A stretch of 64,000 bases of DNA from an uncultured virus (IMG/VR IMGVR_UViG_3300046713_000279) (taxonomy: Duplodnaviria; Heunggongvirae; Uroviricota; Caudoviricetes): the IMG/VR virus record IMGVR_UViG_3300046713_000279; one strand, given 5' to 3'. The notes below the pieces were generated by a model, which saw only the letters and a list, made by a program, of their open reading frames with translations, ran no database searches and was not told where the DNA came from. The translations under genes were made by a program, and so were the position numbers. Each line of letters starts with the position of its first letter. Positions within the stretch are counted from its first letter, which is position 1. Positions 1-64,000 of this stretch are shown here, one piece after another.

Positions 1-295
1 CCAGGCCATGGGGGACGTCATCGGCACCATCACCACGGTGCTCGACGTGGCCAGCGATGCTGCGCTGCCCGAGGTCGTGTGCCGCATCCAGCAGCTCCAG
101 GCGGTCGATCGCGGTCAACCCGTGCCGGTGTGCGCGGAGACGCCGCCCGGCTTGGGTGCGCCCTGGGCCCAGCGCGTGATGCCCGTCCTGCGGGGCTACG
201 TGTACGCCCAGCAGAACCAGTGGGTGTACCCGGTTGCCGTCCTGGCGGCGATCGGCCTGCCGATGTGGATCGGCTACGAACTGGGGAGGAAGTGA
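1..295 (+). CDS. Small membrane protein, probably 5'-truncated (putative virion protein)
   Basis: Frame is open to the window edge; C-terminal hydrophobic segment WVYPVAVLAAIGLPMWIGY followed by RK. Confidence 0.6.
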   Translation, partial: QAMGDVIGTITTVLDVASDAALPEVVCRIQQLQAVDRGQPVPVCAETPPGLGAPWAQRVMPVLRGYVYAQQNQWVYPVAVLAAIGLPMWIGYELGRK

Positions 296-297
296 CC

Positions 298-654
298 ATG
301 AAGACCTCGACGCTCCTGCTTCTCGGTGCGGCTGCCGCTGGCTACTACTTCTACAAGAAGAACGCCTCGGCGACGGCCGCCACGACGTCCGCAGTCACCG
401 CGACCACGGCGGCGTCATCCGGTAGCGACGCCTCGGCAGCGGACGTCGCCGCGGCGACCGATCCTTCGCAGACCGGCGCCAGCGCGATCGTGCCGGCGGT
501 CGTCATCATCCAGCCCGACGACTCCTATGACGCCTACTGGCCGGGCGGCGGGTGGGGGCCCTCGTGGGGCGGCCTCGTGGGTGGCGGTCATGGCCATCAC
601 GGCGGTCATGGCCATCACGGGGGTGGCCATGGTGGGCACGGAGGGCATCACTGA
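298..654 (+). CDS. N-terminally anchored Ala/Thr/Ser-rich protein with Gly/His-rich tail
   Basis: GGAGG RBS upstream; MKTSTLLLLGAAAAGYYFYKK; ends GGHGHHGGHGHHGGGHGGHGGHH; TGATG overlap with next gene. Confidence 0.7.
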   Translation: MKTSTLLLLGAAAAGYYFYKKNASATAATTSAVTATTAASSGSDASAADVAAATDPSQTGASAIVPAVVIIQPDDSYDAYWPGGGWGPSWGGLVGGGHGHHGGHGHHGGGHGGHGGHH

Positions 655-1211
655 TGGCCTACATGCGGGACCAGGACTACAGGACGCGTGGCGTCCGAGC
701 CATCGCGTCCGCCGACAACTCGCCATCGCGCCAGGCCCGGCGAGTGGACATGGCGCAGGCGACGCGCGCCCGAGATCGCGCCATGGCGCGGATCGCGCGA
801 GGCGCGCTGGGCGACCCGCTCACGCCATGGCTGACCCCGGGCGCCACGTACACCGCCTTCACCACCAACGTCGACATCACCCCCAAGCCGACGCCTACCT
901 TCAGCGTCTCGACGGGACCCCACCCGCAACCGACCGATCCGGGCCATATCGGGCCGCCGCCTCACCCGCAGCCCGCGCCGCCGGTATCACCGCCATCGTC
1001 ATCGCCCTCGAGTGGGGGCGGTGCGGGGGGATCAGGCGTCGCAATGGGGCCGGCTCCGGTGTCCGCGCCCATCCCGCCCATCCCGGTGCTCGACACGGGG
1101 GAGCCGGCCCAGACGATCCCCCCGCCCGACAACACCATGCGGAACGTGCTCATCGCCGCCGGGGCAGCGGTGGGCGCCTACTTCCTCTTCATCCGGGGGC
1201 GGTCGCCGTGA
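654..1211 (+). CDS. Pro-rich protein with C-terminal TM anchor (MAY...LG leader family)
   Basis: MAYMRDQ...RGALGD; ends VLIAAGAAVGAYFLFIRGRSP. Confidence 0.7.
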   Translation: MAYMRDQDYRTRGVRAIASADNSPSRQARRVDMAQATRARDRAMARIARGALGDPLTPWLTPGATYTAFTTNVDITPKPTPTFSVSTGPHPQPTDPGHIGPPPHPQPAPPVSPPSSSPSSGGGAGGSGVAMGPAPVSAPIPPIPVLDTGEPAQTIPPPDNTMRNVLIAAGAAVGAYFLFIRGRSP

Positions 1212-1468
1212 GTTACGCCATGCGCAAGACGCCGCGGTCGTCGTTCATGGTCGGACGCCGGGGCATGGGGGCGGCGGTTGCGACCGTCGTCGAGGAGACG
1301 CCGCCGATCATTTCGCCCCCGTTCAACCCGGGGGCCATCATCATTCCCTCCGGCGTGATGCCCATGACGCCGGCGCCCACGACCCCTGTCTCATCGTCGG
1401 GCCTTACTCGGTATGTCCTTTGGGGCGGGCTCGCCTATCTGGCATACTGGCTTTGGTCCAAGGAGTGA
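1208..1468 (+). CDS. Small C-terminally anchored membrane protein (leader family)
   Basis: GTGA overlap; MSYAMRK...RRGMGA; ends YVLWGGLAYLAYWLWSKE. Confidence 0.65.
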   Translation: MSYAMRKTPRSSFMVGRRGMGAAVATVVEETPPIISPPFNPGAIIIPSGVMPMTPAPTTPVSSSGLTRYVLWGGLAYLAYWLWSKE

Positions 1469-1472
1469 CCCC

Positions 1473-1895
1473 ATGGCCTACTACAAGCGCCTCCCCATCT
1501 CGACTCGCGCCGTGCCTCACAGGCGTGCGCTCCTGGGCATGGGGGGCTTCACCGATATAGACCAGTGCTCGACGATCCCGCTGGGGGACCCCTACCGGAA
1601 GCCGGGCAACTACTGCGCGACGCCCGATGGCGGAACCACCACGTTCAACGCGGACGGGACGACCTACCGCGCGCCAGGCTACGCGGTGGACCCAGATCCC
1701 GCCCATCCGGTCGGCACCCCGAGCTCGGGGTCCGGCGGCGGCATCATGGACAGCCTCACCCGCGTACTCACCGGGGCGTTCGCCCCGCCGCCCACGGTCA
1801 TCGTTCCGGGGGCGAGCGGCGGCATGTCCACCGGCACGATGCTGGCGCTGGCCGGCGGAGCGGTGCTGATCGCCGTCATGCTGGCGCGGCGCTGA
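1473..1895 (+). CDS. Small C-terminally anchored membrane protein (leader family)
   Basis: AAGGAG RBS; MAYYKR...LLGMGG; ends MLALAGGAVLIAVMLARR. Confidence 0.7.
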   Translation: MAYYKRLPISTRAVPHRRALLGMGGFTDIDQCSTIPLGDPYRKPGNYCATPDGGTTTFNADGTTYRAPGYAVDPDPAHPVGTPSSGSGGGIMDSLTRVLTGAFAPPPTVIVPGASGGMSTGTMLALAGGAVLIAVMLARR

Positions 1896-1907
1896 AAGGG
1901 GACTGCC

Positions 1908-2171
1908 ATGGCGTACATGCGAAACGACCTCATCGCCCGCACCGGCTACTCCGGGGTGGGGGATTGGTGGGACACTATCAGCAGCGCGGCGGGCGACGTG
2001 CTCAAGGTCTACGGGGCGACGCAGCAGGCCCAGGGCGCCGCAGCGCAGAGCACCCGGGACATGCAGGCGGCGCTGGCCGCGCAGAGCGGGCCCAGCACGA
2101 CCACCATCCTGCTCATCGGGGGGCTGGCGGTGGGAGCGTTCCTGCTACTGAGGCGGAAGAAGCCGGCCTAG
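1908..2171 (+). CDS. Small C-terminally anchored membrane protein (leader family)
   Basis: MAYMRN...YSGVGD; ends ILLIGGLAVGAFLLLRRKK. Confidence 0.75.
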   Translation: MAYMRNDLIARTGYSGVGDWWDTISSAAGDVLKVYGATQQAQGAAAQSTRDMQAALAAQSGPSTTTILLIGGLAVGAFLLLRRKKPA

Positions 2172-2178
2172 TGGGGCG

Positions 2179-2463
2179 TTACCACTCGGTGGAGCAGAGG
2201 AATCCGCGACCGTCCGACATAGCCCATTCCGATGCCGTTCTGGTTGCTTTGTCATCCCATCCCTGCCCGTTCACATTACGGATCGTGATCGGTGTGTCGC
2301 CGGGCACCTCGCTCCACTCGTCGAGCGACCAGCCTTCTTGCTCGAAGGTCGCTCCATAGTGTTGCTCGACGACAACCTGGGCGTCTTGAAGGCTGCGCGC
2401 AACCACCGTATCGGTTTCGTTCGTGAATACACGCAAACCGCCCGGCTCGCTCTCGTTCGTCAT
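2179..2463 (-). CDS. Hypothetical protein
   Basis: GAAAGGAG RBS before ATG at 2463; acidic 94-aa ORF. Confidence 0.6.
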   Translation of the reverse strand: MTNESEPGGLRVFTNETDTVVARSLQDAQVVVEQHYGATFEQEGWSLDEWSEVPGDTPITIRNVNGQGWDDKATRTASEWAMSDGRGFLCSTEW

Positions 2464-2522
2464 TGAACTCCTTTCGGTGGGAAAGGCTACCCGATCCCGG
2501 CGCCCTCCGGCTACCATAGGGC

Positions 2523-2861
2523 ATGGCGTCAGGTGAGATCGTCGTGCCCGAAGACATGCCCCCGGCGGAGATCGTACGGGGGATAGTTGCCTACCTGCGC
2601 AAGGAGGCCGCAGCGTTCGACCACTGCATCTCGGAGGGCGAGGCGCTCGGCGAGGACATGCGCTGGGCCAAGGTGAAGCGGATGTCGGTTGGCGTGATGG
2701 CCGAGCGCGTCGGGCGCGGTGACTGGCTGCGCCAAGCGTCGGCCGATGAAGAAGGGGATCCTCGACGCATCACATTGGACGATGCGAGTTGGCAGAAGTT
2801 CTGCACTGAAATGGAGCATCCCAGCCCGCCGAACGCGGCCCTACGTGCGCTGTTCAAGTGA
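2523..2861 (+). CDS. Hypothetical protein with DUF1778/TacA-like C-terminal segment
   Basis: Ends RRITLDDASWQKFCTEMEHPSPPNAALRALFK. Confidence 0.5.
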   Translation: MASGEIVVPEDMPPAEIVRGIVAYLRKEAAAFDHCISEGEALGEDMRWAKVKRMSVGVMAERVGRGDWLRQASADEEGDPRRITLDDASWQKFCTEMEHPSPPNAALRALFK

Positions 2862-2878
2862 GCCGACCCGAGGATTCC

Positions 2879-3421
2879 ATGTCCAAGACCCTGAACGTCG
2901 ACCTGTCCGACCCCCGCGTACGGGATATGCTGGGCGGTCCATCGTCTCTTGCCAGTGGAAAGCGCGAGGTGGTGCAACTCGCCGGGGACCCGGCCAACCC
3001 GACCCCCGCCGGGCTCCAGTCCACCACCCACCTCACCGGGGGCAAGCAGGAGGTGGTGGTGGTCTACGGGGACCTGCTGATGACCCTGGACGTCTACGCC
3101 CTGCCGGGGGAGCCCATGCGGGTGCAGATCATCTGCCCCCGGTGCCGCAAGCACTCGACCATCCGGGGGGACCAGAAGAAGATCGAGTACGAGCCGACGT
3201 CGCTGAACCCCAGGGCCGCCCTGGTCAAGGCGATGGTCGGTCACTCGCAGGCCGAGCTCGACCTGGTCACGGCCGCGCAGTTCGGACGCCTCTCGATCGA
3301 GCCCTTCGAGTGCGCATGGGAGATCGGCGACGCCCCGCACGTGGCCGGCGCGGTGCACACCGGGGCGTCGCTCTGCCGCCTTCGGCTCGCCATCGAGAAC
3401 AACCGCGCCAGGGAGGTGTGA
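2879..3421 (+). CDS. Hypothetical protein with CxxC
   Basis: GAGGA RBS; CPRC; GC3-biased codons. Confidence 0.6.
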   Translation: MSKTLNVDLSDPRVRDMLGGPSSLASGKREVVQLAGDPANPTPAGLQSTTHLTGGKQEVVVVYGDLLMTLDVYALPGEPMRVQIICPRCRKHSTIRGDQKKIEYEPTSLNPRAALVKAMVGHSQAELDLVTAAQFGRLSIEPFECAWEIGDAPHVAGAVHTGASLCRLRLAIENNRAREV

Positions 3422-3423
3422 GG

Positions 3424-3627
3424 ATGCCTAGAACGCATGGATATCGGCTGGTCAGGAATGCGGTGGTCGACGGGCGGGCGCCCGCTGCCGGCGCGACCAT
3501 CGTTGACCCCCGGACGCTCACGACCGACGCCCTGTATCACACCAAGAAGATCCATTCGAGGGCCGAGTTCCTCGACTTCCTCCGCGATGCGAGCGGGGCG
3601 CTTCCGGACGTAGACAGGGGCCGGTGA
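3424..3627 (+). CDS. Hypothetical protein
   Basis: GGAGG RBS; fills the gap in the operon. Confidence 0.45.
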   Translation: MPRTHGYRLVRNAVVDGRAPAAGATIVDPRTLTTDALYHTKKIHSRAEFLDFLRDASGALPDVDRGR

Positions 3628-3630
3628 GCC

Positions 3631-4497
3631 ATGCCATCGCACGAGCAGGAACTCGAGGGCTACATCCTCCAGGGGATGGCGCACGCGATCTGGGGCCACG
3701 CCTTCATCCAGTGGGCCACCAATGTCGAGCCCCCGTCGGACCTTCACGGCGCGACGTGGGCCGAGGTCACGCCGCCCACGGACCCATCGGCCATGAAGGC
3801 CGCCAAGGAGTTCTCTGCAGGCATCGGAACGCTCAACGATCTGGGTGTGCGCCCGATGGTCAAGATGTTCCTGGCGTCGCGCAGGTACGCGCAGCCGCGG
3901 CGGAGTTCGACCAGGGCAACCGAGGCCGACCAGGCCTTCCAGTTCGGGTCGGACGTGGCCCAGGCGTGTCTGGGGACGCTCGACGTGCCCGAGATCGGCC
4001 AGTACAAACTACCCGAGATGAAGGCCGAGCTAGACGATGATGGAACACACCTGTCCTGGGATGAGGGCTGGTTATGGCACCGCGAGGCCCCCCAACCGAA
4101 CCCCGGCCCTCAGGGGGTTCGGGCGCGCGTGTGGCCCTCGCGTAACCCTGGGCGCGTCGCGCCCGAGGTGCCCCTCCAGCAGTTTGCGGCCGACGTGAAC
4201 GCCGAATTGCCGTATGTCGTGGCCGAGCGGGGAGACGGCGCCAAGGGCCGCTTCGGTGACCGCAAGGTGTTCATCGCAGCTGTGTGGCGCCAACTCCGAA
4301 CATCGCCCGCGTTCGATGGGATGACCCTGGCTAAGTTCAAGGACCGACTCGTCGAAGCGCACAGGCAGCGACTGCTCGAACTCGCGCGTGCAGATCTCGT
4401 CGCAGCCATGGACTCCAGGGAGGTCGCCGAGTCGGAGTGGGTGGATCCGGATGGGGGCCGCTCCTACCACTTCGTGGTCGACCGATCAGTGCCATGA
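3631..4497 (+). CDS. Two-domain hypothetical protein
   Basis: 288 aa; C-terminal domain GRFGDRKVFIAAVWR...FKDRLVEAHRQRLLELARADLVAAMD. Confidence 0.65.
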   Translation: MPSHEQELEGYILQGMAHAIWGHAFIQWATNVEPPSDLHGATWAEVTPPTDPSAMKAAKEFSAGIGTLNDLGVRPMVKMFLASRRYAQPRRSSTRATEADQAFQFGSDVAQACLGTLDVPEIGQYKLPEMKAELDDDGTHLSWDEGWLWHREAPQPNPGPQGVRARVWPSRNPGRVAPEVPLQQFAADVNAELPYVVAERGDGAKGRFGDRKVFIAAVWRQLRTSPAFDGMTLAKFKDRLVEAHRQRLLELARADLVAAMDSREVAESEWVDPDGGRSYHFVVDRSVP

Positions 4498-5108
4498 CGT
4501 ACGCGCGTCTCCGCAGGCCGGCGCTGGGCGCAACCCCGGTCGAGACCCCCGCCCCCCAGCCGGGCAGGCCCCAGCCGCCCATCTACCCGCTTCAGGTGGG
4601 CGACCACGGTGCCTGGCTCGAGGTGCGCTCCACGCCCGCGGATGGCTCCTGCGGCGTCCACGGGTACCCCTGCAAGCATCCTGGCGTGGACGTCGCCGGC
4701 GCGGCCGGCACGTCCGTGGTGGCGCCAGAGAGCGGCGCCGTGGTGGCAGCGGGGAGCGGCGCCTCGGCCCCCTTCGTGGGCTATGGGCCCTGGTTCGTCA
4801 TCATCCAGGGGCAGGAGAGCGACAAGTTCCACCTGCTGGCGCACCTGGACCCCGTAACGGCCTCGATGGCACCCACGGGCACTCAGGTAGTGGCTGGTGA
4901 CCAGGTCGGCATCACGAGCTCGGCCAACCACACCCACTGGGAAGTGCGAGACGAGATGGTGCCGGACTTCGCAGCGGGAGAGGACAACTTCACCAACAAC
5001 GAAGACCCGCTGGCGTGGCTGTCAGGCGCCTCGATGGGGATCTTCGGGACCGCCCTGCTGGTCGGCGGTGCTGCGCTGTTCCTGTGGCTCCTGTTCAGCG
5101 ACGGGTGA
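4494..5108 (+). CDS. M23-family peptidase with C-terminal TM anchor
   Basis: HPGVD (HxxxD) and HTH (HxH) zinc motifs; LAHL; C-terminal TM; MTY...ALGA leader. Confidence 0.85.
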   Translation: MTYARLRRPALGATPVETPAPQPGRPQPPIYPLQVGDHGAWLEVRSTPADGSCGVHGYPCKHPGVDVAGAAGTSVVAPESGAVVAAGSGASAPFVGYGPWFVIIQGQESDKFHLLAHLDPVTASMAPTGTQVVAGDQVGITSSANHTHWEVRDEMVPDFAAGEDNFTNNEDPLAWLSGASMGIFGTALLVGGAALFLWLLFSDG

Positions 5109-7487: not shown

Positions 7488-7646
7488 ATGAAGATCACCT
7501 ATCACAAGCCCGCCGCCAGCGGCGTCAACCAACTCATGTACGTCGGCGACGACGCGGCCGTGGAGAGCGCCACGGGTGGCCTGTCCATGCCGGTCAAGGT
7601 CGCGATCGCGGCTGTCGCGGCGTGGCTCCTGCTCTGGAGGAAGTGA
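7488..7646 (+). CDS. Very small C-terminally anchored membrane protein
   Basis: MKITYHK...MYVGDD...VAIAAVAAWLLLWRK; GAGG RBS. Confidence 0.6.
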   Translation: MKITYHKPAASGVNQLMYVGDDAAVESATGGLSMPVKVAIAAVAAWLLLWRK

Positions 7647-13599: not shown

Positions 13600-14759
13600 C
13601 GACCCGGCGCTCCATGATCGACCCCGCCATCTCCGCCTACTACACCGGGGACGTACGCGCGCTGCTCAAGCGGCTACCGGATGGCTGCGTGCAGTGCTGC
13701 GTGACCTCGGTGCCCTACTGGGGTCTCCGATCGTACCTCGATGACGACGACCCGATGAAAGAGTTCGAGATAGGGGACGAGGACACGCCAGAGGAGTACG
13801 TGGCAGTCATGGTGGATGTGTTCAAGGAAGTCCGGCGGGTGCTGCGGGATGACGGGACGTTGTGGCTCAACCTGGGGGACTGCTACGCGGGCTCGAGTTC
13901 GGGACCACAGGGCGAGAGCGGGCAGATGGCCAACCGCACGGTGGTCAAGCACCGAGGCATGCGGAGTCGCACCAAGGGCATTGACCCGAAGAACAAGCGC
14001 AAGGGGCCGGGCAGCAACGACGCACCGAACCGCCGCCGCCATGCCACGCTCAAGCACAAGGACCTCGTCGGCATCCCCTGGATGACCGCCTTCGCGCTGC
14101 GCGATGCCGGCTGGTACCTGCGCATGGACAACATATGGGCGAAACCGAATCCCATGCCCGAGTCGGTGACCGATCGGACCACGAAGGCGCACGAGTATCT
14201 GTTCCACTTCAGCAAGAGCGAGTCGTACTACTACGCCAACGGGGCCATCGCCGAGCCTGTCTCGTGGAACGGTCAGCATCGCAACGTCATCGGCCCCGAC
14301 GCCAGCCACATGCCGGGCGCGCCGCAGCATACCGGACTCCGCAAGTACAAGAGCGGCGACAGGGAGCGAGAAGAGGACTCGACTCGCAACAAGCGCTCCG
14401 TCTGGACGGTGCGCGATGTCGACCGGCTGAAGTTCGCTGAGGACCAGGCGGCGGCGTGGTCAGCGCTGGCCACGTACATCCGTGAACACCCGCACGGCAA
14501 GAACTCGGTGTGGCCCGTCACCCCGCAACCCTACGCCGGCGCCCACTTCGCCACCTTCCCGCCCGATCTGATCGAGCCCTGCATCCTGGCCTGCTCTCGT
14601 CCTGGTGACCTGGTGCTGGACCCGTTCTTCGGGTCGGGCACCACCGGCATGGTCGCCGAGAAGCACGAGCGGCTGTGGATCGGATTCGACATCAACCCCA
14701 AGTACGCCGAGCTCGCCAAGGAGCGGACGGCGCAACGCAGCTTGCCGCTGTCACGTTGA
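13596..14759 (+). CDS. DNA N4-C/N6-A methyltransferase, beta class
   Basis: TSVPYWG (motif IV variant); IWAKPNPMPES; HFATFP; LDPFFGSGTT (motif I). Confidence 0.92.
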   Translation: MTTRRSMIDPAISAYYTGDVRALLKRLPDGCVQCCVTSVPYWGLRSYLDDDDPMKEFEIGDEDTPEEYVAVMVDVFKEVRRVLRDDGTLWLNLGDCYAGSSSGPQGESGQMANRTVVKHRGMRSRTKGIDPKNKRKGPGSNDAPNRRRHATLKHKDLVGIPWMTAFALRDAGWYLRMDNIWAKPNPMPESVTDRTTKAHEYLFHFSKSESYYYANGAIAEPVSWNGQHRNVIGPDASHMPGAPQHTGLRKYKSGDREREEDSTRNKRSVWTVRDVDRLKFAEDQAAAWSALATYIREHPHGKNSVWPVTPQPYAGAHFATFPPDLIEPCILACSRPGDLVLDPFFGSGTTGMVAEKHERLWIGFDINPKYAELAKERTAQRSLPLSR

Positions 14760-14770
14760 AGGAGTTCATC

Positions 14771-15727: not shown

Positions 15728-15762
15728 AGCAACTGGTATTAGGCCAAGCCCTGGGAGAGACG

Positions 15763-28747: not shown

Positions 28748-28756
28748 GACCGCCTC

Positions 28757-47637: not shown

Positions 47638-47640
47638 GTT

Positions 47641-48909: not shown

Positions 48910-48912
48910 AAG

Positions 48913-49647: not shown

Positions 49648-49675
49648 GGGCGGAGCGTAGCGCGGCGACCGCGGC

Positions 49676-50260
49676 CTAGTCCAGCGCCGCCATCAGCACA
49701 TCTCGGGCCAAGTTGATGTTCGCCATCTTCTTCGTCGACCCGCCGTGGTCCGGGTGGTGCTTCTTGACGAGGGCGCGGTGCCGCGCCTTGATCTGGTCCG
49801 CGTCGAGCGGGTCGTCCGGCCCGAACCCCATCACCTGCCGAGCGGCCGCCCTGGCCTTGCGGAGATCGGCCTCGGGGTCATGCTGCGGTGAGGCCTGTCG
49901 GTGTCCACCGGCATGCGGGATGTTCCAGTGCCACGGGCGGCCGGCGCCCGACTGCGCGCGCCGGTGTGCCGCGTCTTCTGAGACCCCGGAGATGTCCGGC
50001 CGGTAGTTGCCCCCGATTCCCGCCACCCACTGGTTCAGGAACGCCTCAGCGGCCCCCAGCGTCGCCTCGCCGTTGATGGGTCTGCCCTGCAGCCAGTCGC
50101 TCACGGTATCCAGCAGCACGCGCACCGGGGGCTTGGGACGGGCCAGTTCGGCCATCGCCAGGCGGTGGGGCCTGCAGAGCGGCGGGTCGCCGTCGCCGTC
50201 CATCGGGCAACGCCGGGACCCCTCTTTGTAGGTGCACCGCTGGGTCTTCGGACGCGCCAT
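49676..50260 (-). CDS. C-terminal J-domain protein with N-terminal CCCH finger
   Basis: IKARHRALVKKHHPDHGG..MANINLARDVL. Confidence 0.8.
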   Translation of the reverse strand: MARPKTQRCTYKEGSRRCPMDGDGDPPLCRPHRLAMAELARPKPPVRVLLDTVSDWLQGRPINGEATLGAAEAFLNQWVAGIGGNYRPDISGVSEDAAHRRAQSGAGRPWHWNIPHAGGHRQASPQHDPEADLRKARAAARQVMGFGPDDPLDADQIKARHRALVKKHHPDHGGSTKKMANINLARDVLMAALD

Positions 50261-50266
50261 GGTGGA

Positions 50267-50716
50267 TCAGAGGATGGCGCCGCCGACCCTCACCGGGGCC
50301 CAGCGGAGCTCGCGAGCTGCGCTGGAGAACGCTGCCCGAACCATGACCGGATCCGGCCCAGCGGTCAGCGCCGAAACGCCGGGTGTTGGCGCAGCGACCG
50401 CGGCAATGGCCGCCAGCGCACCAGCGATGGCGCATCGTCCCAGGTTCGACTTCACCGGCGTGAGATCGGCAAGGATCGTCGCCTTGAGGGTGGCGAGGTC
50501 GGGCGGAGTGGTGCCCGAGAGCCACGCCTGCACCCTGGCCGACGCGAAGGTCTCGGCGTCCGCGAGCGCCGCCGGATCGATGCTGCTCGTCTCGCAGTTG
50601 AACGCAGTGACCACACCGGCAGTTGTGGCCTGGCTGGCCTGGGTGCATGCCTGATACATGCCCAGGATGAACACCAGGGCGAGGGGGACCCCTAGAAAGG
50701 CAAGATAGGGCTTCAC
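50267..50716 (-). CDS. Secreted or membrane protein
   Basis: N-terminal signal or TM segment. Confidence 0.55.
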   Translation of the reverse strand: MKPYLAFLGVPLALVFILGMYQACTQASQATTAGVVTAFNCETSSIDPAALADAETFASARVQAWLSGTTPPDLATLKATILADLTPVKSNLGRCAIAGALAAIAAVAAPTPGVSALTAGPDPVMVRAAFSSAARELRWAPVRVGGAIL

Positions 50717-50974
50717 GTGGACTCTTCTTTCTCGGGCGGATCGCCCAGGATGACGATGCTGGGGTTGGGCGCGTTGATGGCCGCAGCACGCGCCTTCTCT
50801 CGCTCGGCGAGGCCGCGGTTCACAGGCGGCACCATGCTCGCCCGACGTTGGTTGTAGTCGTGCGGGATCAGCGGCCGGGGACCGAACACGCCATCGAAGT
50901 CGAGCGGCGGCGCGGTCCACGGATCCATCGAAGAACGCCGCCCCGCCAGATTCTCGAACACGTGAGGCACGGCC

Positions 50975-51274
50975 CTACCCTGCCTTCGGCGGCGTGGCCG
51001 TCGGTGTTGGGGGCGCCGCATTGGCCATGGCGCGAATGAGGCCGCCTAACGCTTCGCCTTGATGTCCGCCGGCCTGCTTGGGTTGAGACGACGCGAGACC
51101 CACAGCACCTGTCACCGTCTTCGCCGCAGCGTACGTGACGAACAGCCACTTGGTGTAGTCGAGCCACTGGTCCACCGTGATGATGCTCATGCCTGTCATC
51201 ACGGTGGCGGCGGCGATGAGCGCGACCGCGACTAAGCCGCGCTCGCTTTTCCAGAGATCCAGGAGAGCTCCCAT
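50975..51274 (-). CDS. Two-TM holin-like protein
   Basis: SERGLVAVALIAAATV...QWLDYTKWLFVTYAA; lies upstream of the lysozyme-like gene. Confidence 0.5.
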   Translation of the reverse strand: MGALLDLWKSERGLVAVALIAAATVMTGMSIITVDQWLDYTKWLFVTYAAAKTVTGAVGLASSQPKQAGGHQGEALGGLIRAMANAAPPTPTATPPKAG

Positions 51275-51404: not shown

Positions 51405-52775
51405 CTACTTGCCCTTGCGCCTCTTGGCGGGCCTGTCCGGCTTGGTGCCGGTGGCGTGGTTGATGTACTGGTGCCACTGCTTGGGCAGTGCCGCCATGTC
51501 CAGGCGGCCGGATGCCACCAGGACGCCCAGGATCACACCCTTCACCAGGTCGTGCGTGGGCGGCTTCTTGTCGGACATCGCTACGATGTCGTCGATGATG
51601 ACGCCCTGCATCGGCTTGGGCCTGGGCGCAGGCTTCGGATCCTGGGTGGGCGGTGCGGACAGCGGGAGATCGGCCTGCTGTTGTTCCTTGACCGCAGCGC
51701 CCTTCTTGCCCTTCTTGGCGTCTCTCGCGGCCTGCTTGTCGGCCTTGTTCTTGGCCTTCGCCGCCGCCTTGTCCGCCTTGTCCTTGTCGCGCTTCGCCTG
51801 AGCGTCGCGCCGGGCGATCTCCTTCTGCTCCTTGGCGGACCGGCGCGCCTCGCCCTTGTCGCCGCCCTGGCGGGCCTCGGTGGCCTTGGCGGCGTGCTCG
51901 TCTTGCTTGTCCTTGTCCTTGACCCCGGCCAGGTCGCGAAAGGTCTCCTCCGAGATCTCGCCGTTGCGCCACCGCTCAAGCAGCTTGGCGCCCGCCGCCT
52001 TGCGGGCAGCAAGGATCTTGGAGACCCAGGACTCGGACCGGCCGATGATGCCCCCGATCGTGGCCATCGTGGTGACAGTGCCGGTATTGGGGTCATTGCT
52101 GGCGCGGAGGCCCTCGGCGCTCACGCTGAGCTCGTAGGCGGACAGCCCCTGGCGCAGGGTGACGATCGCCAGAACCTCTCGCAGGTACCGTTGAGCGAGC
52201 ATCTGAGACCACTCGACCGGCTCGGGCTCCCGGTCGATGACAGGAACGAGCACACCGTCCGCCTGTTTCTCCCCGGCGTACGCGACGCGTGTCGCCAGGT
52301 ACCGCCGCTGGCCGTCCAGCACCAGCTGCTCCACCTTCCTTCCGACCTTGATCTGGACGACGCGAAGCGGCTCGTCAATACCAGCGAACATATTCTTCTC
52401 GTCGGTGACGGTCTTGCGAGCGATGTCGTCCGCAAGCGCTCGGATGTCGGGATCCTCGAGTCCCGTGAAGATGCGAGGGTTCTTCCAGAACTTGCGCTCC
52501 AGGTGGAGTTCCCCCAGGGGGACCCAGCGCCGCTCCTGGGGGCTACCCTCGGGGTGGACGGGGGTGCCGTCCTCGAGCTCGTCGGGTTCCGCAGCCTGGC
52601 TGGTGTCGGCGGCCGGGATCTCGTTGTCGTCTTCCGCCGCCGCGTCCACTTCGACGCCAGGGTCGGGCTCGCCCACCGCTTGCTCCTCCTCGGGCTCGTC
52701 GTCCTCGTAGTGCGTCTCGGTGTCCTCGTACGACTCCTCGCTGGGATCGGGGTCCAGAAACTCGGGGCTGCGCAT
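51405..52775 (-). CDS. ParB-like protein with acidic N-terminus and Lys/Ala-rich C-terminus
   Basis: NPR; IRALADDI; EPLRV; LVLDGQRRYLA; HTH IGGIIGRSESWVSKIL. Confidence 0.8.
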   Translation of the reverse strand: MRSPEFLDPDPSEESYEDTETHYEDDEPEEEQAVGEPDPGVEVDAAAEDDNEIPAADTSQAAEPDELEDGTPVHPEGSPQERRWVPLGELHLERKFWKNPRIFTGLEDPDIRALADDIARKTVTDEKNMFAGIDEPLRVVQIKVGRKVEQLVLDGQRRYLATRVAYAGEKQADGVLVPVIDREPEPVEWSQMLAQRYLREVLAIVTLRQGLSAYELSVSAEGLRASNDPNTGTVTTMATIGGIIGRSESWVSKILAARKAAGAKLLERWRNGEISEETFRDLAGVKDKDKQDEHAAKATEARQGGDKGEARRSAKEQKEIARRDAQAKRDKDKADKAAAKAKNKADKQAARDAKKGKKGAAVKEQQQADLPLSAPPTQDPKPAPRPKPMQGVIIDDIVAMSDKKPPTHDLVKGVILGVLVASGRLDMAALPKQWHQYINHATGTKPDRPAKRRKGK

Positions 52776-53315
52776 CGGTCGATCTCCTATCGGTGGTGGG
52801 GAAGCAAGAGTTGGCAGGGCCCACGGCGATGAGGGGGAGCCGTGGTCCTTTGCGTCGGCGGTGGGGTGCTACCGCTTCGTGGGCTACTGCCATTGCCGGC
52901 CCTTGGCGACTTACCACCTCGGGCAAGGAATCATCTCGTCACCCCTCATCTCGTTGCTGAACATCATGCACATCAGGCTTTCCACTGGCAAGGCCTGGGA
53001 ACGTCTCCTCACATGGACTGGTCGACCTGGCTACCTCCACGACCAACGCCCACGAGCCGGTCCAGACGTCGGCATCGTCTGGGACTCCGGCGAGTCGCAG
53101 GGCGTACGACCCCGACCGCCAGAACTACAGCGTCTCGCTGCGCAGCGATCCCCGAGCCCTGACGGCCCTGCTCAAGGTTCTGCCCGAGAACATCGCCCCG
53201 CTTCCGCTGGTCTGGGTCCACCTGGACGGCCTGCTCACGCGCCCGGTCTGCTGAGTTTTCCAGCGGCATCCCCACGGCCATGCGTGATACCGTCCTCATC
53301 TTCTAGGAGGATGAC

Positions 53316-54341
53316 ATGCCGTTCGCAGGAACACCGATCGTCACACAGGTAAGCGACAACCTGTGCAGGATCACGGGGGTCTCTGTTCTGGGATCTCAGA
53401 CTGGCTCGATCGGTCTGCACGAATTTCCGGTGACGGGCATCGGGACGCGCCCGGACATTCGGTTGCCGGCGTCGTTCCGCCCTCGCACGTACGAGTACGG
53501 CAACGCGGCGGCCCATCTGGTATCGCTGCAGGACTCGATTCAGGTGTGGTCGAACTACGTCGAGCCGGGCGCCATCATCGCGCCCGTCCTGATCCAGAAG
53601 GACGGGACCACGCCCGAAGCTTTCGTGGCCATCTTCGCCTATCCGGTGTCGGGGCCATCGACCGTTCTTCGGAACGCTCAGGCGTTCGCGGTGCTCGGCG
53701 GAACCGCCGTGAACAACGTTGGGGCGACGGCGGTCACCGGAGACATCGGGGTGTCCCCAGGGGCCATCGTGACCGGGTTCCCGCCGGGAACCGTCACCGA
53801 CGGGACGATCGAGGTCGACACGCCGCTGGCGCAGCAGGCGCATATCGACGCCACCGACGCTTTTGCCAACCTGGCCGCGCGTACTCCGACGCAGGACCTG
53901 ACCGGCATGAACCTGGGTGGCCTGGTGCTCACGCCGGGGGTCTACAAGTTCACGGGTGCCGCGCAACTCACCGGCGCCCTCACCCTCGACGCGGAAAACA
54001 ACGCGTCGGCGTCGTTCGTGTTCCAGATCGGCACCACGATGACCTTCGACGCCGCGTCCACGGTCGCGCTCATCAACGTGAGCACCCTGAACGTTGCGGC
54101 CGGAAACCTGCTTCTATGGCAGGTTGGCACCACCGTGTCCATTGGTGCCGGAGCAGCGCTCACGGGGTCCATCGTGGCCGCCGGTGACATCACGGCGGGC
54201 GCAGCCGCGACGGTGACCGATGGTCGTCTGCTGTCGCTGGGCGGGGCCGTGACGCTCGATACCGACACGCTGGCCATCCCGCCCGCGCTCGCCGAGGGGC
54301 TGACGACGGGCGAGCTCGAGATCTACGTCGGGTTCCACTGA
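53316..54341 (+). CDS. LEIYV-family protein with inserted ice-binding (DUF3494) domain
   Basis: FAVLGGTAV..TGDIGVSPG..LGGLVLTPGVY..LTLDA..FVFQIG..WQVG..GRLL. Confidence 0.85.
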   Translation: MPFAGTPIVTQVSDNLCRITGVSVLGSQTGSIGLHEFPVTGIGTRPDIRLPASFRPRTYEYGNAAAHLVSLQDSIQVWSNYVEPGAIIAPVLIQKDGTTPEAFVAIFAYPVSGPSTVLRNAQAFAVLGGTAVNNVGATAVTGDIGVSPGAIVTGFPPGTVTDGTIEVDTPLAQQAHIDATDAFANLAARTPTQDLTGMNLGGLVLTPGVYKFTGAAQLTGALTLDAENNASASFVFQIGTTMTFDAASTVALINVSTLNVAAGNLLLWQVGTTVSIGAGAALTGSIVAAGDITAGAAATVTDGRLLSLGGAVTLDTDTLAIPPALAEGLTTGELEIYVGFH

Positions 54342-54386
54342 CCTGCCGTGGACCCGCCTGACCCTCCTCGCGTATGGTCTGGCTCC

Positions 54387-54824
54387 ATGGCATTCCTTGG
54401 AACTCCAATCGGCGAACTCGTCACCCCCAACCTCTTCCGCATCACCGGCGTGAGCCTAGCCGCCCAGGCGTCCGCGACCATCGGACTCGCTGGCGCGAGC
54501 GAAACCCATCCGGCTGGTATCATTCTTCCTCCCGGCTTCCTGCCACCGTCGTTTCAGGGTCAGCCGGTCGATCTGGCATCGGGCATCCGCGTGAGCATCG
54601 CCCCTGTGAGCGGGGCGCCGGGGCCCTTCACGAACCTGCCACCCTCGATCGAGAAGACCGGCGCGACACCTTCGGACTTCCAGATCCTCATCACCAACAC
54701 CAAGGTCGATCTGACCACCCAGACGCTGGAGATCTACGTCGAGTCGCTGTCGTCCGCCGCGGCAGGGGCGCGGACCGTCAACATCATCGGGCCCCTCATC
54801 GGGGGCGACGAGTCCGTCGGCTAG
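54387..54824 (+). CDS. Beta-rich putative virion protein (LEIYV family)
   Basis: MAFLGTP..FRITGVSLAA..IILP..KTG.T..F.I.ITNT...LEIYV. Confidence 0.7.
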   Translation: MAFLGTPIGELVTPNLFRITGVSLAAQASATIGLAGASETHPAGIILPPGFLPPSFQGQPVDLASGIRVSIAPVSGAPGPFTNLPPSIEKTGATPSDFQILITNTKVDLTTQTLEIYVESLSSAAAGARTVNIIGPLIGGDESVG

Positions 54825-54944
54825 ACGGCGCGCTGTGATACCCTAGGCGGATGCGTTTTCACGCAAGTCGAAAGCGCGTGGTCCAGAGATCAGGCAAATC
54901 TCGTACCGGATGCTGGCTGCCACCGTCTTGGCAGGGTCCGGCAT

Positions 54945-55637
54945 CTACGCACCCCCCAACTCGACCTCGGCATCGTGCAGCGCCACGTTGAGCTCTGCAG
55001 CGCGCTCGTGGGTGCCGCCAACGTCGGGGTGAGCGGTGCGGATGTGTTCGCGGTGCCGCTGAGCGATCAGGCGGAGGCACAGGGCGCGGTCGGCGTGGGC
55101 AGATCTCTTGTTGACGCGGTCCACGATGTCGTGACCGGCTCCGCGCGTGGCCCACGCGGGCGACAGATCGCGGAACACATCGCGCCAGGACTTCGTGGGG
55201 CTGGAGGCTTGGTTTGGAGCCATCTCCTGCTCTGCCCCTGGCGGCAGCGCCGCGAACCCCGAGAACGCTCGGGTCACCATGTCCGCCGCGCCCCAGTCGC
55301 CGATCTTCCTGATCGCCTCCACGGTCTTGCCGATGGCGCGCAGGTTGGCGGCAGCGGTGGACCAGCGGTCGCAGGCGAACACGCGCTCCGCGCCATCGAC
55401 AACGCACCAGACCGCGATGCCAGGGTCATCCGCCTTGCCGCTGGCATACGGCAGACCACGGCTGTTCGTAGGCAAGTCGGAGGTTATGACCACGTTGGAG
55501 GCCTTCATCAGGCGGAGATCATACAGGAGGTCCTGGACGCCCTCGGTCAAGGTGACCCTGAACAGGGCGCGCTCTCGCTTGGTGGGGTCGATGCGGGCCC
55601 AGCCAGCGGGCCACTGCAACGGGAAGGGTTGGCGCAT
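54945..55637 (-). CDS. J-domain protein (phage type)
   Basis: PLQWPAGW..; FACDRW; AFSGFAALP; HPDVGG. Confidence 0.8.
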   Translation of the reverse strand: MRQPFPLQWPAGWARIDPTKRERALFRVTLTEGVQDLLYDLRLMKASNVVITSDLPTNSRGLPYASGKADDPGIAVWCVVDGAERVFACDRWSTAAANLRAIGKTVEAIRKIGDWGAADMVTRAFSGFAALPPGAEQEMAPNQASSPTKSWRDVFRDLSPAWATRGAGHDIVDRVNKRSAHADRALCLRLIAQRHREHIRTAHPDVGGTHERAAELNVALHDAEVELGGA

Positions 55638-55915
55638 CACCGCAACTCCGGGAAGCAATGCGGGTGGACGACCTCTTCCGAGCCGTCCTCCATCCGCACC
55701 TTCACCGCCTGGCCCGGCAGATGTCCCAGGTAGGTGACCTTGGTGCCAGCGTGGACCATCGCCCCGCTATCGCTGATGCACGGGCGGTCGCTGGTCATAG
55801 AGAGATCGGCCGAGAAATTGCGTCTCACCGGCACAATGATCGGTCGCACCAGCTTGCGCACCTTTGGCTGCGGAACCTCGCCCTCAGGGGGTGTCTTCTC
55901 GGGATGCTTCGTCAC
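55637..55915 (-). CDS. Hypothetical protein
   Basis: AAGGAG RBS; TGATG overlap. Confidence 0.55.
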   Translation of the reverse strand: MTKHPEKTPPEGEVPQPKVRKLVRPIIVPVRRNFSADLSMTSDRPCISDSGAMVHAGTKVTYLGHLPGQAVKVRMEDGSEEVVHPHCFPELR

Positions 55916-61584: not shown

Positions 61585-61967
61585 GGGCCTAGCCTATCTA
61601 CCCGCCAAGCGGGTGTCAGGGTCCCGGCGGGAATCGCCGGGTCGGAAAGAGGTAGTGCAGGGGCCTTGCCAGTGGAAAGTCCGGCCCACTCCGGATGCCT
61701 TGCCTGAGCTTAGGCCTCCGGAGTGGTGGAAAGTGGGGGAAAACCTACCAGCTGGGGTGTCGGATCTGGTCGATTTCTGACACTCCGGAGTGGCTTCTGA
61801 CGGGCAGTTGGGGCACCTCACGCTCCGGCTTTGGCCTCCGGAGTGGGGTCTGGACGCCCCGTTTCCTGGCCCATGGGCTACAGACCCCAGATCGACATGC
61901 GCGGAAAGCCCGCCGAAACCCCACCCCGAGTCCACTAGAACCCCACGGGAACGCGCATGATGCCCGA
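61585..61967. promoter_or_regulatory. Divergent intergenic control region with repeated palindromes
   Basis: CTCCGGAGTGG at 61716, 61783 and 61836; GGCCTTGCCAGTGGAAAG at 61662. Confidence 0.55.
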
Positions 61968-62780
61968 ATGAAGACCCAAGACCCTCACTCCGAGCTCCAG
62001 GACGGGTTCGAGGTGGCTCCCCTGCCGCCCATCGGGCCCGATGGAGCGCCCCAGATCCCACCCCAGCGCACCGATCCTCCCGCCAGACCCTCCCTGTGCC
62101 AGGCCGGACCCTGCCAGCGCTACCACAGGCTCGTGGTCCAGGTGGATGCGGCGAACCCTGGCGCGGTTCGGGTGCCCATCGCGCTTCCGGAGGGGACCCC
62201 AGGGGCGGAACTGACCGCGGACGGGACGGTCTACCGCGCGCCAGCTGCGTTCCACGTCCAGACGCACCACTACTGCTACCCGGACACGGGGATCGAGATG
62301 CCCCTGGGTGCGCTCCCGGTGGTGGAGTGCAACCGGTGGGACCCCGACATCGATGTCGACGGCTTCTGGCCGGAGGATGGCATCCGGCCCGCCTCGCGCC
62401 GGAATGCCTTCCTGGCTTCACCCGCGGGTTTGACCTATCGCGACGCGGTCGCCTGCTGGGAAGAGGCGCGCGCCGCCGAGCAGACCGAGGCAGCGGAGGC
62501 CGAGCGGCTGATCGCCCGGTCTATGGACGAGACCCCGACCATCGCCTGCCAGGTGTGCGGCAAGAGGTTCGAGGAGCACGAGGTCGACGTCCAGATGCGC
62601 TGCCGATCGTGCGTCGGAGCCAGCCTGCAGCCTCGAGCCAACTTGCGCTACACGTCGCCGCACAAGTTCGCTCCAGGCAAGTTCAAGCGTGGTGACCGGG
62701 GCGGACAGCAGCCCGAGGAAACGTGCGACGTTTGCGGCTACGACCCCAGGAACGTTATCCACCACACGGAGACCCCATGA
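61968..62780 (+). CDS. Cys-rich hypothetical protein
   Basis: CQVCG, CRSC and CDVCG motifs; start position uncertain. Confidence 0.55.
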   Translation: MKTQDPHSELQDGFEVAPLPPIGPDGAPQIPPQRTDPPARPSLCQAGPCQRYHRLVVQVDAANPGAVRVPIALPEGTPGAELTADGTVYRAPAAFHVQTHHYCYPDTGIEMPLGALPVVECNRWDPDIDVDGFWPEDGIRPASRRNAFLASPAGLTYRDAVACWEEARAAEQTEAAEAERLIARSMDETPTIACQVCGKRFEEHEVDVQMRCRSCVGASLQPRANLRYTSPHKFAPGKFKRGDRGGQQPEETCDVCGYDPRNVIHHTETP

Positions 62781-63220
62781 GCATCGAGACCCTGAAGGAT
62801 GACCTGAAGGCCGTCATCAGCGCCCTGCCGAGCGGCCCCCTGACCACGGCCGCCGACATGGCGGGGTACCTGAAGAACAACCTCCTGCCTCTTATCGAGA
62901 CCGTCGTGAACGAGATGGAGGAGATGGACGGGTCCATCGAAGATCTTGTCGTCCACGGCCAGGACGTGATCCACGAGGAGACGGCGGCCGTGTTCATGGG
63001 CCTCATCACGAGCGGCATGACGATGGCCAAGGAGCTCGAGGACCTGGCCGCCAAGACCGGGGACAGCAAGCGGCTCCAGCCGCTCATCAAGGAGTGGCGC
63101 GAGCTCGCCGAGCAGGGCGCCGAACTGCTCGAGGACATCACGATCCCGGACCCCGATGCGGATGACCCTGACGAGACACCGGCGGTCCAGTCCACCCCGC
63201 CGCCGGGAGCCCAGGCGTGA
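62777..63220 (+). CDS. Acidic helical hypothetical protein
   Basis: GGAG RBS; ATGA overlap. Confidence 0.65.
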   Translation: MSIETLKDDLKAVISALPSGPLTTAADMAGYLKNNLLPLIETVVNEMEEMDGSIEDLVVHGQDVIHEETAAVFMGLITSGMTMAKELEDLAAKTGDSKRLQPLIKEWRELAEQGAELLEDITIPDPDADDPDETPAVQSTPPPGAQA

Positions 63221-64000
63221 AGGCCCCTCGAGCGAGCGTCGCGGAGGTCTCCGACACCCCGGAGGAGGATGCCGAGCTTGCGCCCGAGGGCGAGGGGGTG
63301 ACGGAGGAGTCGGTTGCCGCCGCTGCGCCCAAGAAGCCAGCGACGCCGCCGGTCCCCAGGCTGACCAAGCCGATGCAGGAGATCAAGCTCGGCGAGGATC
63401 AGGCGCTGAAGGACTACCTGGACATGCTGGGGCCGGACGGCTCCATTCGCGTCCGGATCAACCGAGAGGCACCGAAGACCGTTCGGGTGAACGGTCGCGA
63501 CTACCCGACCGCCGGACATCTCGACACGGTAAACGAGTGCATCGACGAGGAGTGGCTCAGGGAGCAGTACGGCGGCGGCACATACAAGCTGACCATCACC
63601 TCCCGGCGCCAGACCGAGGGGGGCTCGTTCAAGTACGCGGGCCACCGGCAGGTCGTCGTCGCAGGTGACCCGAAGATCGAGAAGCTCCCCACCAACGCCG
63701 TGGCCGCGACGCCGAGCGGCCCTGCGCCGGCCCCGGAATCAGCGGGCATGGTGAAGGAGGTGATGGGACTCCTGAAGGACGAACTGGGCCACGCTCGCGA
63801 GGCCAAGCCGCAGGGCATCGACCCCGCCGTGCAGATGGTCATCGACCAACTCCGCGATGACGCCAAACGGCGCGACGCCCAGATGGACAAGCTCCAGCAG
63901 CAGCTCGACCAGGCGAGACACCAGAAGCCTCCCGAGGACCCGTTCCGGGAGAAGATGCTCGACAAACTCATCGACGGGGACTCGGCGCGAGTCACCGCGC
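63217..64000 (+). CDS. Large coiled-coil protein, 3'-truncated (absent from the ORF track)
   Basis: GTGA overlap; frame open to the window end; MKAPRASV...EQYGGGTYKL...QMDKLQQQLDQA. Confidence 0.7.
   Translation, partial: MKAPRASVAEVSDTPEEDAELAPEGEGVTEESVAAAAPKKPATPPVPRLTKPMQEIKLGEDQALKDYLDMLGPDGSIRVRINREAPKTVRVNGRDYPTAGHLDTVNECIDEEWLREQYGGGTYKLTITSRRQTEGGSFKYAGHRQVVVAGDPKIEKLPTNAVAATPSGPAPAPESAGMVKEVMGLLKDELGHAREAKPQGIDPAVQMVIDQLRDDAKRRDAQMDKLQQQLDQARHQKPPEDPFREKMLDKLIDGDSARVTA

Follow-up and report, generated by a model that had tools for sequence, protein, structure and literature searches.

Predicted single jelly-roll proteins in circular relatives of a 64-kb viral contig point to a probable lineage of tailless, membrane-containing bacterial viruses

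The DNA of 64,000 nucleotides studied here (the window, by which we mean this whole stretch) is IMG/VR record IMGVR_UViG_3300046713_000279 of an uncultured virus. It belongs to a family of elements that we consider, with a probability of roughly two in three (0.68), to be an undescribed lineage of tailless, membrane-containing and jelly-roll-shelled double-stranded DNA (dsDNA) viruses of bacteria. This assignment, drawn from sequences and predicted structures, is carried by an operon found in six complete circular relatives and lying mostly outside the window. The operon codes for two adjacent predicted single jelly-roll proteins, a protamine-like membrane protein and a series of small polypeptides with a carboxyl-terminal membrane anchor. 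Full-text literature searches, whose coverage leaves most subscription journals outside, returned no published description of such a group.

Circular relatives and the arc absent from the window

The first gene of the window has no start and the last one no stop, showing that both ends are cut inside genes and that the record extends past both of them. An exact 52-base match to the window end is absent from viral_contigs and metagenome_contigs, and megablast against 50,697 phage records gave no close DNA relative, matching only a tRNA-like stretch. Relatives were found at the protein level. Among 56 homologues of the ParB-like protein g088, 11 are carried by contigs of 69-84 kb, and a scan of one genome per species yielded two loci, on contigs of 72,801 and 88,678 bases in which the initial sequence is repeated at the end. 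Both contigs, which come from metagenome-assembled genomes (MAGs) and are called here myxo and peri, are syntenic with the window and hold an extra 12.3 and 12.6 kb between the counterparts of its last and first genes. IMG/VR contributes 15 further relatives as viral contigs. Ten are close, on contigs of 22.9-86.4 kb (75.6-86.4 kb for eight of them), and five are distant (L026 to L030), with a capsid protein of 28-29% identity and contigs of 95-179 kb.

The two MAG contigs and four IMG/VR genomes, the latter listed with direct terminal repeats and as 100% complete by CheckV, make up the six complete relatives. All have terminal overlaps of 90-265 bp, as in assemblies of circles, and they span 72.7-88.4 kb with 110-146 genes. 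Clustering of seven gene sets (these six and the window) defines 52 families present in at least five of the seven genomes, and 13 families found in all six complete genomes but not in the window, every one of which maps to the missing arc. In relatives G004 and G005, 71 of 107 window genes have matches in the same order, with mean identities of 68% and 70%, and the arc left unmatched measures 12.7 and 14.2 kb, respectively. Because the window is collinear with complete relatives and lacks a single arc, its element is most likely a circle of about 76-78 kb with the capsid genes just outside the window. Judged by this synteny, the window is about five sixths of its circular genome.

The arc and the two ends of the window form one operon. 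Among the 45 proteins encoded in and around the arc of the two MAG contigs, Pfam and PHROGs recognise, beyond weak noise, only the M23 peptidase and a DUF1508 protein. In about a dozen arc proteins the carboxyl terminus is a hydrophobic stretch with a few basic residues after it, and some ten of the operon products are small and tail-anchored. A 449-amino-acid (aa) membrane protein is protamine-like: of its 230 amino-terminal residues, 43% are Lys or Arg and none is Asp or Glu. Its family is represented in every complete genome by two paralogues, one short and one lengthened by the basic extension. Members of a 219-aa family share invariant Cys140, His178 and Asp195, and their ESM Atlas neighbours are Transglut_core and Peptidase_C93 clusters, mostly viral (top score 0.97), suggesting a transglutaminase-like cysteine protease. 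The large proteins of the operon, of 543-611 aa and 550-590 aa, comprise one of about 560 aa with a carboxyl-terminal membrane anchor in five of the six genomes and one of about 575 aa that is a low-complexity coiled coil without conserved P-loop. Two adjacent beta-rich proteins of about 200 aa each are encoded in the arc of all six complete genomes.

The neighbours of the family look bacterial. One relative was binned with a Myxococcales genome, but only two of 401 sampled genomes of the phylum of this MAG hold the capsid gene. A haloarchaeal origin, hinted at by a few weak DUF matches, was ruled out by the median isoelectric point of the window proteins (6.4).

Two adjacent predicted jelly-roll proteins

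The first of the two beta-rich proteins, 191 aa long, is 93% identical between the two MAG contigs; for the 53 proteins that these contigs share, the median identity is 40%. Its 681 candidate sequences form 592 clusters at 90% identity, many of them on contigs of 70-104 kb, and 241 clusters at 50%. The AlphaFold2 model, computed from 56 sequences, is a jelly roll with a predicted local distance difference test score (pLDDT) of 89.3 and a predicted template modelling score of 0.83. VIA-align of this model to 48,161 representative chains gives a single match with Z of at least 8, the capsid protein of Sulfolobus polyhedral virus 1 (SPV1; chain 6oj0_T, Z 8.5, root-mean-square deviation (rmsd) 3.8 A over 135 residues). 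It is followed by satellite panicum mosaic virus (6.9), Haloarcula californiae icosahedral virus 1 (HCIV-1; 6.6), P23-77 VP17 (6.3) and Haloarcula hispanica icosahedral virus 2 (HHIV-2; 6.3). A second look, among the Foldseek top 1000, places SPV1 at 8.9, P23-77 at 7.2, HHIV-2 at 6.8, Sulfolobus turreted icosahedral virus at 6.7, HCIV-1 at 6.6 and SH1 at 6.5. The top rows of Foldseek itself are nearly all viral jelly-roll capsids: turnip yellow mosaic virus (E 2.4e-3), SPV1 (4e-3), PRD1 P3 (6e-3) and SH1 (1.3e-2). In BFVD the search returned two unnamed entries at 7.5e-4 and otherwise generic capsids of small viruses.

The second candidate (206 aa) is the product of the adjacent gene. Its model, based on an alignment of 14 sequences that includes 316-321-aa forms from distant relatives, has a pLDDT of 77.7 and consists of an amino-terminal helix and a jelly roll. 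The best VIA-align match is again 6oj0_T (Z 7.9, rmsd 3.0 A over 122 residues), ahead of HHIV-2 (6.8) and several double jelly-roll capsids. Structures of the sphaerolipovirus type score Z 5.6-7.2 against the two models. The predicted jelly-roll fold of the candidates is secure. Their kinship with SPV1 is not secure, Z values of 7.9-8.9 being too low for claiming common descent.

Distant relatives have a 250-aa version of the first jelly roll (28-29% identity), followed in L026, L027 and L029 by a 315-321-aa version of the second, and no PHROG head or tail family is found in the 20 kb around the jelly-roll genes of L026 and L029. The two-jelly-roll design thus appears, from these gene pairs, to extend to genomes twice as large. 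A 482-aa homologue, P0222, was considered as a double jelly-roll fusion and rejected: it has a single jelly roll, enlarged by about 235 aa inserted in one loop, as in some members of the family. Compared with L015:6105-6677, the insertion falls at query residues ~118-124, the least confident loop of the model, a position that suits a tower exposed at the surface of a capsid protein.

Searching the window itself with the capsid family by tblastn gave two short traces:
53048-53248, + strand: probable carboxyl-terminal remnant of a capsid-protein paralogue
55637-55915, - strand: g092, 92 aa, carrying the capsid-protein motif KLVRPIIVPVRRNFSA

The first trace, 67 aa long and within a stop-to-stop frame of 97 aa just upstream of g089, is 51-64% identical to the carboxyl terminus of a 230-251-aa capsid-protein paralogue of G004, G006 and G007, and looks like a remnant of it. 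The paralogue is possibly a vertex protein. The motif KLVRPIIVPVRRNFSA of g092 nearly matches a conserved strand of the 191-aa candidate (50% identity over 38 aa), and g092 is kept in G004 and G005 at 74-80%.

Gene content of the window

An initial annotation, made from the sequence of the window, had described virus-like gene density without recognisable terminase, portal, HK97 capsid or tail genes, and both statements stand. A codon-bias gene caller predicts 106 genes (107 in a second run), mostly short and tightly packed, in DNA of 64-71% G+C without any N. Searches of all 106 proteins against Pfam-A and PHROGs detected no terminase, portal, HK97-type capsid, head-maturation or protease-scaffold family, no true tail family, and no relaxase, coupling protein, VirB4-type ATPase or type IV secretion protein. 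PHROG matches concern 25 of the 106 proteins. Rows labelled 'tail' arise from two cases, without a third: the M23 domain of g012, which hits peptidase domains embedded in tape-measure proteins, and g050, with a 0-stretch hit at E 5.9e-4.

The same annotation had seen structural-looking genes in five separate islands. Each of these regions does hold such genes. They are less scattered than was thought, with a main virion operon that spans the two ends of the window and lies mostly outside it. Its parts inside the window are:
61968..64000, + strand: start of the virion operon, g104 to g106, all core (7 of 7 genomes)
61968-62780, + strand: g104, core family in 7 of 7 genomes, no Pfam or PHROG match
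62777-63220, + strand: g105, acidic, core family in 7 of 7 genomes, no Pfam or PHROG match
63217-64000, + strand: g106, coiled coil running past the window end, core in 7 of 7 genomes, no Pfam or PHROG match
1..5108, + strand: end of the virion operon, core families in 5-7 of 7 genomes, syntenic with relatives
2-295, + strand: g001, tail-anchored protein truncated by the window start to its carboxyl-terminal part
within 1..5108, + strand: g003, g005 and g006, tail-anchored, with an M-x-Y leader
2879-3421, + strand: g009, core
within 1..5108, + strand: g011, part of the operon end
4494-5108, + strand: g012, tail-anchored M23 peptidase with M-x-Y leader (Pfam Peptidase_M23)
7488..7646, + strand: g015, 52-aa tail-anchored core protein, family in 7 of 7 genomes

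Alignment with relatives of 574 and 569 aa identifies g106 as the first 261 aa of the coiled-coil protein of ~550-590 aa, which we read as scaffold-like. The family of g015 has a carboxyl-terminal hydrophobic stretch in six of its seven members and is 91-97% identical in G004 and G005. By our criterion seven of the 107 window proteins are tail-anchored, others having internal hydrophobic stretches, in line with the small membrane proteins reported earlier. Four of the seven, the M23 peptidase included, begin with the M-x-Y leader, for which ~4% is expected by chance.

Two peptidoglycan hydrolases had been proposed to be membrane-anchored at their carboxyl termini, and hydrophobic stretches are indeed found there, at residues 178-196 of 204 in g012 and 223-241 of 244 in g083. 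The M23 domain of g012 scores above the Pfam cut-off (E 3e-11; 43.8 bits for a cut-off of 28.7). For g083 (48913-49647, - strand), Pfam SLT matches are weak (two of six family members, best E 0.015). The motif HESGGN...G..Q is invariant in all six members, and SLT clusters account for 25 of the 30 ESM Atlas neighbours, with a top score of 0.96; we read g083 as a probable SLT-type lytic transglycosylase. Also encoded by relatives are a lysozyme of family GH25 and beta-helix proteins, 676-1312 aa long, that resemble depolymerases.

The beta-rich spike-like paralogues noticed earlier fall into two families, A (g048, g089 and g090, with a common amino-terminal domain of ~105-125 aa) and B (g050, g058 and g060, with one of ~107-126 aa and 49-65% identity). 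Carboxyl termini differ within both. A common amino-terminal domain joined to differing carboxyl termini is the layout of exchangeable receptor-binding proteins. Pfam assigns g089 to the Ice_binding beta-solenoid (E 4.5e-44, 151 bits), and the 598-aa g050 matches Beta_helix below the cut-off (E 5.6e-5). The corresponding regions are:
25012..29404, - strand: spike and membrane island g048 to g052, defined by paralogy and family clustering
within 25012..29404, - strand: g048, family A amino-terminal domain only
within 25012..29404, - strand: g049, part of the island
within 25012..29404, - strand: g050, family B amino-terminal domain and beta-helix
within 25012..29404, - strand: g051, M-S-Y leader
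28757-29404, - strand: g052, clustering with the carboxyl-terminal membrane domain of the protamine-like virion protein of relatives
32276-32857, + strand: g058, family B
33518-34813, - strand: g060, family B, separated from g058 by g059
47284..51274, - strand: second conserved late block g080 to g087, core families in 6-7 of 7 genomes, including g083 and g084 (weak DnaJ-like carboxyl terminus)
53316-54341: g089, family A, Ice_binding
54387-54824: g090, family A, with g091 in the same region (53048..55915)

Several other genes have predicted functions in DNA modification and maintenance, and Pfam and PHROGs, the source for the two enzyme clusters, also report dual-specificity phosphatase, DUF1643 and GP88 families:
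13614..18205, + strand: DNA-modification and accessory cluster, with N6/N4 DNA methylase g029, g030, AAA ATPase g031, PAPS-reductase-like g032, and g033
24892..24962, - strand: tRNA-Met(CAU)-like gene (Rfam RF00005, 52.1 bits, E 2.6e-8)
34866..39728, - strand: nucleic-acid enzymes, with RNA ligase g061, HNH/DUF968 g062, RusA-like g063, DUF5131 g064 and Dam-like methylase g068
43756-44499, - strand: g075, divergent core pair with g076
44519-45391, + strand: g076, tyrosine recombinase
51405..52775, - strand: g088, ParB-like, with an amino-terminal ParB/Srx-type motif, then a helix-turn-helix (HTH) and a lysine-rich linker

Both g064 and g068 are core (7 of 7 genomes). So is g076 (Phage_integrase, E 2e-14), which is 84-85% identical in G004 and G005, and so is g088, whose NPR...DGQRR and HTH RSESWVSK blocks are invariant in 28 sequences; its homologue in the peri contig has weak matches to ParB_N and HTH_ParB (E 1e-4). 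The anticodon stem of the tRNA-like gene is of the initiator type, with three G-C pairs, and its acceptor stem contains a single bulged base; the gene was missed by ARAGORN, which found no tRNA in the window. In two relatives the same slot, beside a g048-family gene, is occupied by tRNA-Arg(ACG). The relatives carry genes for a sliding clamp and a cytosine methylase. Their DNA-modification and anti-defence repertoire is, by annotation, rich: DpdA, Mom, QueD-like and histone-deacetylase-like genes are present, and weak matches to Acb2/Tad1 hairpin domains occur at L006:329-820 of the myxo contig (E 7e-5) and L040:11256-12500 of G006 (E 5e-7).

Virus architectures, rival explanations and the predicted particle

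Profile searches of the relatives covered 128 proteins in the rest of the two MAG contigs (Pfam) and 111 of 114 proteins of G006 (Pfam and PHROGs). Among the scanned proteins of these three complete relatives there is no terminase, portal, capsid, tail, relaxase or type IV secretion family, and no tape-measure, baseplate or head-tail connector family; 'tail' rows are only M23 domains aligned to peptidase domains of tape-measure proteins. The initial annotation had asked that the flanks be searched for a jelly-roll capsid protein with an FtsK/HerA-type ATPase. It held that a terminase, portal and HK97 capsid, or conjugation machinery and no capsid, would speak against its proposal. Taking the relatives in place of the window's own flanks, the arc of the six genomes provides two adjacent single jelly rolls and no conserved ATPase, and none of the adverse gene sets is seen in the three relatives scanned genome-wide.

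The lack of a packaging enzyme extends to motifs. G007 is devoid of Walker A motifs and G006 of canonical ones, the core families of the seven gene sets include no P-loop protein, and no ParA-type ATPase motif was seen. Two candidates were discarded. The HerA/DUF87 ATPase of ~700 aa (L005:14958-17066 in myxo, L010:17906-19987 in peri) is found in two of the seven compared genomes and not in one further IMG/VR record (G003), is absent from the window and from all five IMG/VR genomes, and is fused to a D12 adenine methyltransferase in one case; it is probably a defence or counter-defence gene rather than a packaging enzyme. The AAA ATPase g031 is present in only four of the seven genomes and is hence not core.

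Among characterised viruses, SPV1 has the closest architecture. It has a circular dsDNA genome of 20 kb with 45 genes, a shell of two single jelly-roll proteins, VP4 forming hexamers and VP10 pentamers, an inner membrane with many small membrane proteins and a core in which a basic protein winds up the DNA; glycosyltransferase, methyltransferase and DNA-binding proteins figure among the functions assigned to it, a packaging enzyme does not, and its host is a hyperthermophilic archaeon (PMC8459092). The family shares with it circular dsDNA, two single jelly-roll proteins (at the level of fold, and in genes of relatives rather than of the window) and, as predicted gene products, a basic protein and membrane proteins. 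SPV1 is also the best structural match of both jelly-roll models. It differs by its archaeal host, by its 20 kb and 45 genes against 72.7-88.4 kb and 110-146 genes, by the lack of sequence similarity to family proteins and, as far as PMC8459092 says, by having no set of M23, SLT, ParB and recombinase genes.

Viruses of the sphaerolipovirus type have no tail; they enclose a membrane and have two different, vertical single jelly-roll major capsid proteins from adjacent genes, and the simuloviruses are temperate episomes (PMC12642351, PMC12643093). Adjacent single jelly-roll genes, present in six of six complete genomes of the family and in distant relatives, are the feature in common with Thermus phage P23-77 and the haloarchaeal viruses SH1, HHIV-2 and HCIV-1. 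These viruses have genomes of 16-31 kb, no sequence similarity to the family, and a conserved packaging ATPase gene beside the capsid genes; no conserved FtsK/HerA-type packaging ATPase was found in the family. PRD1 and the tectiviruses have an internal membrane, many small membrane proteins, virion-borne wall hydrolases and vertex spikes. In PRD1 the capsid protein is a double jelly roll, and the genome is linear, 15 kb long, and served by a protein-primed polymerase and a packaging ATPase. P3 does figure among the weak Foldseek rows of the 191-aa model, but the family's candidates are single jelly rolls of 191 and 206 aa, its genomes are circular, and no ATPase or polymerase family as in PRD1 was found in the relatives scanned by Pfam. 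The earlier suggestion of an unusually large lipid-containing bacterial virus is supported with another model, SPV1- or sphaerolipovirus-like and not PRD1-like. The plasmid-prophages N15 and P1 resemble the family by a ParB partition-type protein and a site-specific recombinase among the core genes, but are tailed phages, and the family lacks a visible ParA-type ATPase. The temperate lifestyle also proposed at the outset is unproven: it is suggested only by the core tyrosine recombinase and the ParB-like protein, and no integrated copy of the element was seen.

Several points weigh against reading the family as membrane-containing viruses. Particle, lipid and infection are all unobserved, the case being built on sequences and predicted structures; the capsid genes of the window's own element are placed by synteny with relatives. 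The structural scores are moderate. Neither candidate has a Foldseek match in PDB at E <= 0.001, the top rows of the second are mixed (lambda gpJ fibre, a calicivirus capsid, a haemagglutinin), non-viral jelly rolls (PHM, nucleoplasmin, GOLD domains) reach Z 5-6.6 in the same VIA-align lists, and a best Z of 7-8 is, by VIA's own warning, typical of models without a true match. Profile searches of PDB sequences returned 0 matches for the first candidate (A4) and coiled-coil noise for the second (A5), those with A6 and A7 being likewise empty or noise. Paralogy of the two candidates was considered and dropped, hhalign giving nothing between them, and this mutual dissimilarity counts on the same side. 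ParB, recombinase and many methylases are equally typical of plasmids. The Pfam searches of the rest of the MAG contigs covered proteins of at least 60 aa (first contig) or 170 aa (second), apart from three boundary-crossing genes, and those of G006 covered all but three genes. The absence of ATPase and portal is a result of profile and motif searches, most core proteins not having been folded; for portal and HK97 capsid there is no profile match, and the only two core proteins folded are both jelly rolls; a double jelly roll could occur among the others.

Three other explanations were weighed. The one we take most seriously, while holding it unlikely, is a non-viral plasmid-like element whose jelly rolls and tail-anchored proteins would have a role outside a virion, for example in a protein compartment, in a structure of the cell surface or of vesicles, or as lectins or adhesins. 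It would accommodate the circular relatives with ParB and tyrosine recombinase as core genes, the lack of a packaging enzyme and the frequent occurrence of jelly rolls outside viruses, non-viral ones reaching Z 5-6.6 in the lists that contain the viral matches; moreover, the viral label of IMG/VR is automatic. However, no relaxase, coupling protein or type IV secretion gene was found, and the six complete genomes keep to 72.7-88.4 kb, a narrow size range seen in many family contigs, which fits a head-full or capsid constraint. A plasmid would also have to account for the extreme conservation of a small jelly roll beside a second one, both best matched to the same viral capsid chain, for spikes that resemble depolymerases and differ by exchanged carboxyl termini, for wall hydrolases and a maturation-type protease, for a protamine-like protein, and for the virus-typical anti-restriction genes DpdA, Mom and QueD of the relatives.

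A pleomorphic or enveloped virus, plasmavirus- or pleolipovirus-like, would be a membrane vesicle with nucleoprotein in which the jelly rolls act as spikes or matrix. In its favour, the element is rich in membrane proteins, one of them basic and DNA-binding, and has no packaging ATPase, which such viruses lack too, and a jelly-roll fold alone is no proof of a lattice. Yet 93% conservation is of the degree shown by proteins packed tightly in a lattice, both jelly rolls best match capsomer proteins of icosahedral membrane viruses, and the known pleomorphic prokaryotic viruses have far smaller genomes, of ~7-16 kb; we regard this explanation as improbable. We give least credit to a very divergent tailed phage whose hallmarks drifted beyond the profiles, the operon proteins of 560-590 aa being its portal and terminase. 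The placement of genes for 543-611 and 550-590 aa recalls a head module, about three quarters of the window proteins match nothing, and accessory genes (DUF5131, GP88, RNA ligase, RusA-like) are common to the window and tailed actinophages. But the ~575-aa protein is a low-complexity coiled coil with no conserved P-loop and the ~560-aa one is membrane-anchored at its end in five of six genomes. Two complete genomes are without canonical Walker A, although few phage proteins are as a rule easier to recognise than terminases. Families of tail, tape-measure, baseplate or head-tail connector proteins are absent from the three scanned genomes, and the most conserved protein is the 191-aa jelly roll.

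We thus privilege the hypothesis of a jelly-roll-shelled virus with an inner membrane. The two jelly-roll proteins would build an icosahedral shell over a membrane studded with tail-anchored proteins, while the protamine-like protein would condense the DNA against this membrane. With DNA condensed on the membrane in this way, the particle would assemble around the genome, as proposed for SPV1, with no pumping of DNA into a preformed head. The tail-anchored M23 peptidase and the SLT transglycosylase, carried in the virion membrane, may open the cell wall at entry or exit. The paralogues with a common amino-terminal domain and variable beta-helix or beta-solenoid carboxyl termini could be exchangeable vertex spikes. 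ParB-like protein and tyrosine recombinase would maintain a low-copy circular episome, or serve integration, and methylases with the other DNA-modification genes may shield the genome from host restriction.

Bacterial dsDNA viruses larger than ~45 kb are almost all tailed phages, and the known tailless ones that contain a membrane have genomes of 10-45 kb and a packaging ATPase. The family could be the first case of bacterial viruses that enclose a large genome (72-88 kb, and to ~180 kb in distant relatives) without a packaging motor, through protamine-like condensation on a membrane, a two-jelly-roll shell, and a leader and protease that sort and mature a dozen membrane proteins. This is a tentative proposal that we think has clearly less than an even chance of being right. 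The family is common in public data, as its 592 capsid-protein clusters at 90% identity indicate. Should a jelly-roll shell over a membrane, filled without a motor, be confirmed, the assumed size limit of tailless viruses would be wrong, a large slice of the metagenomic viral 'dark matter' would receive a name, and the relation between archaeal and bacterial single jelly-roll capsid lineages would become testable. The family would then provide a second, bacterial system of motor-free genome encapsidation and a new high-rank lineage, in which the SPV1-type architecture, so far restricted to one archaeal family, would be present in bacteria at fourfold genome size.

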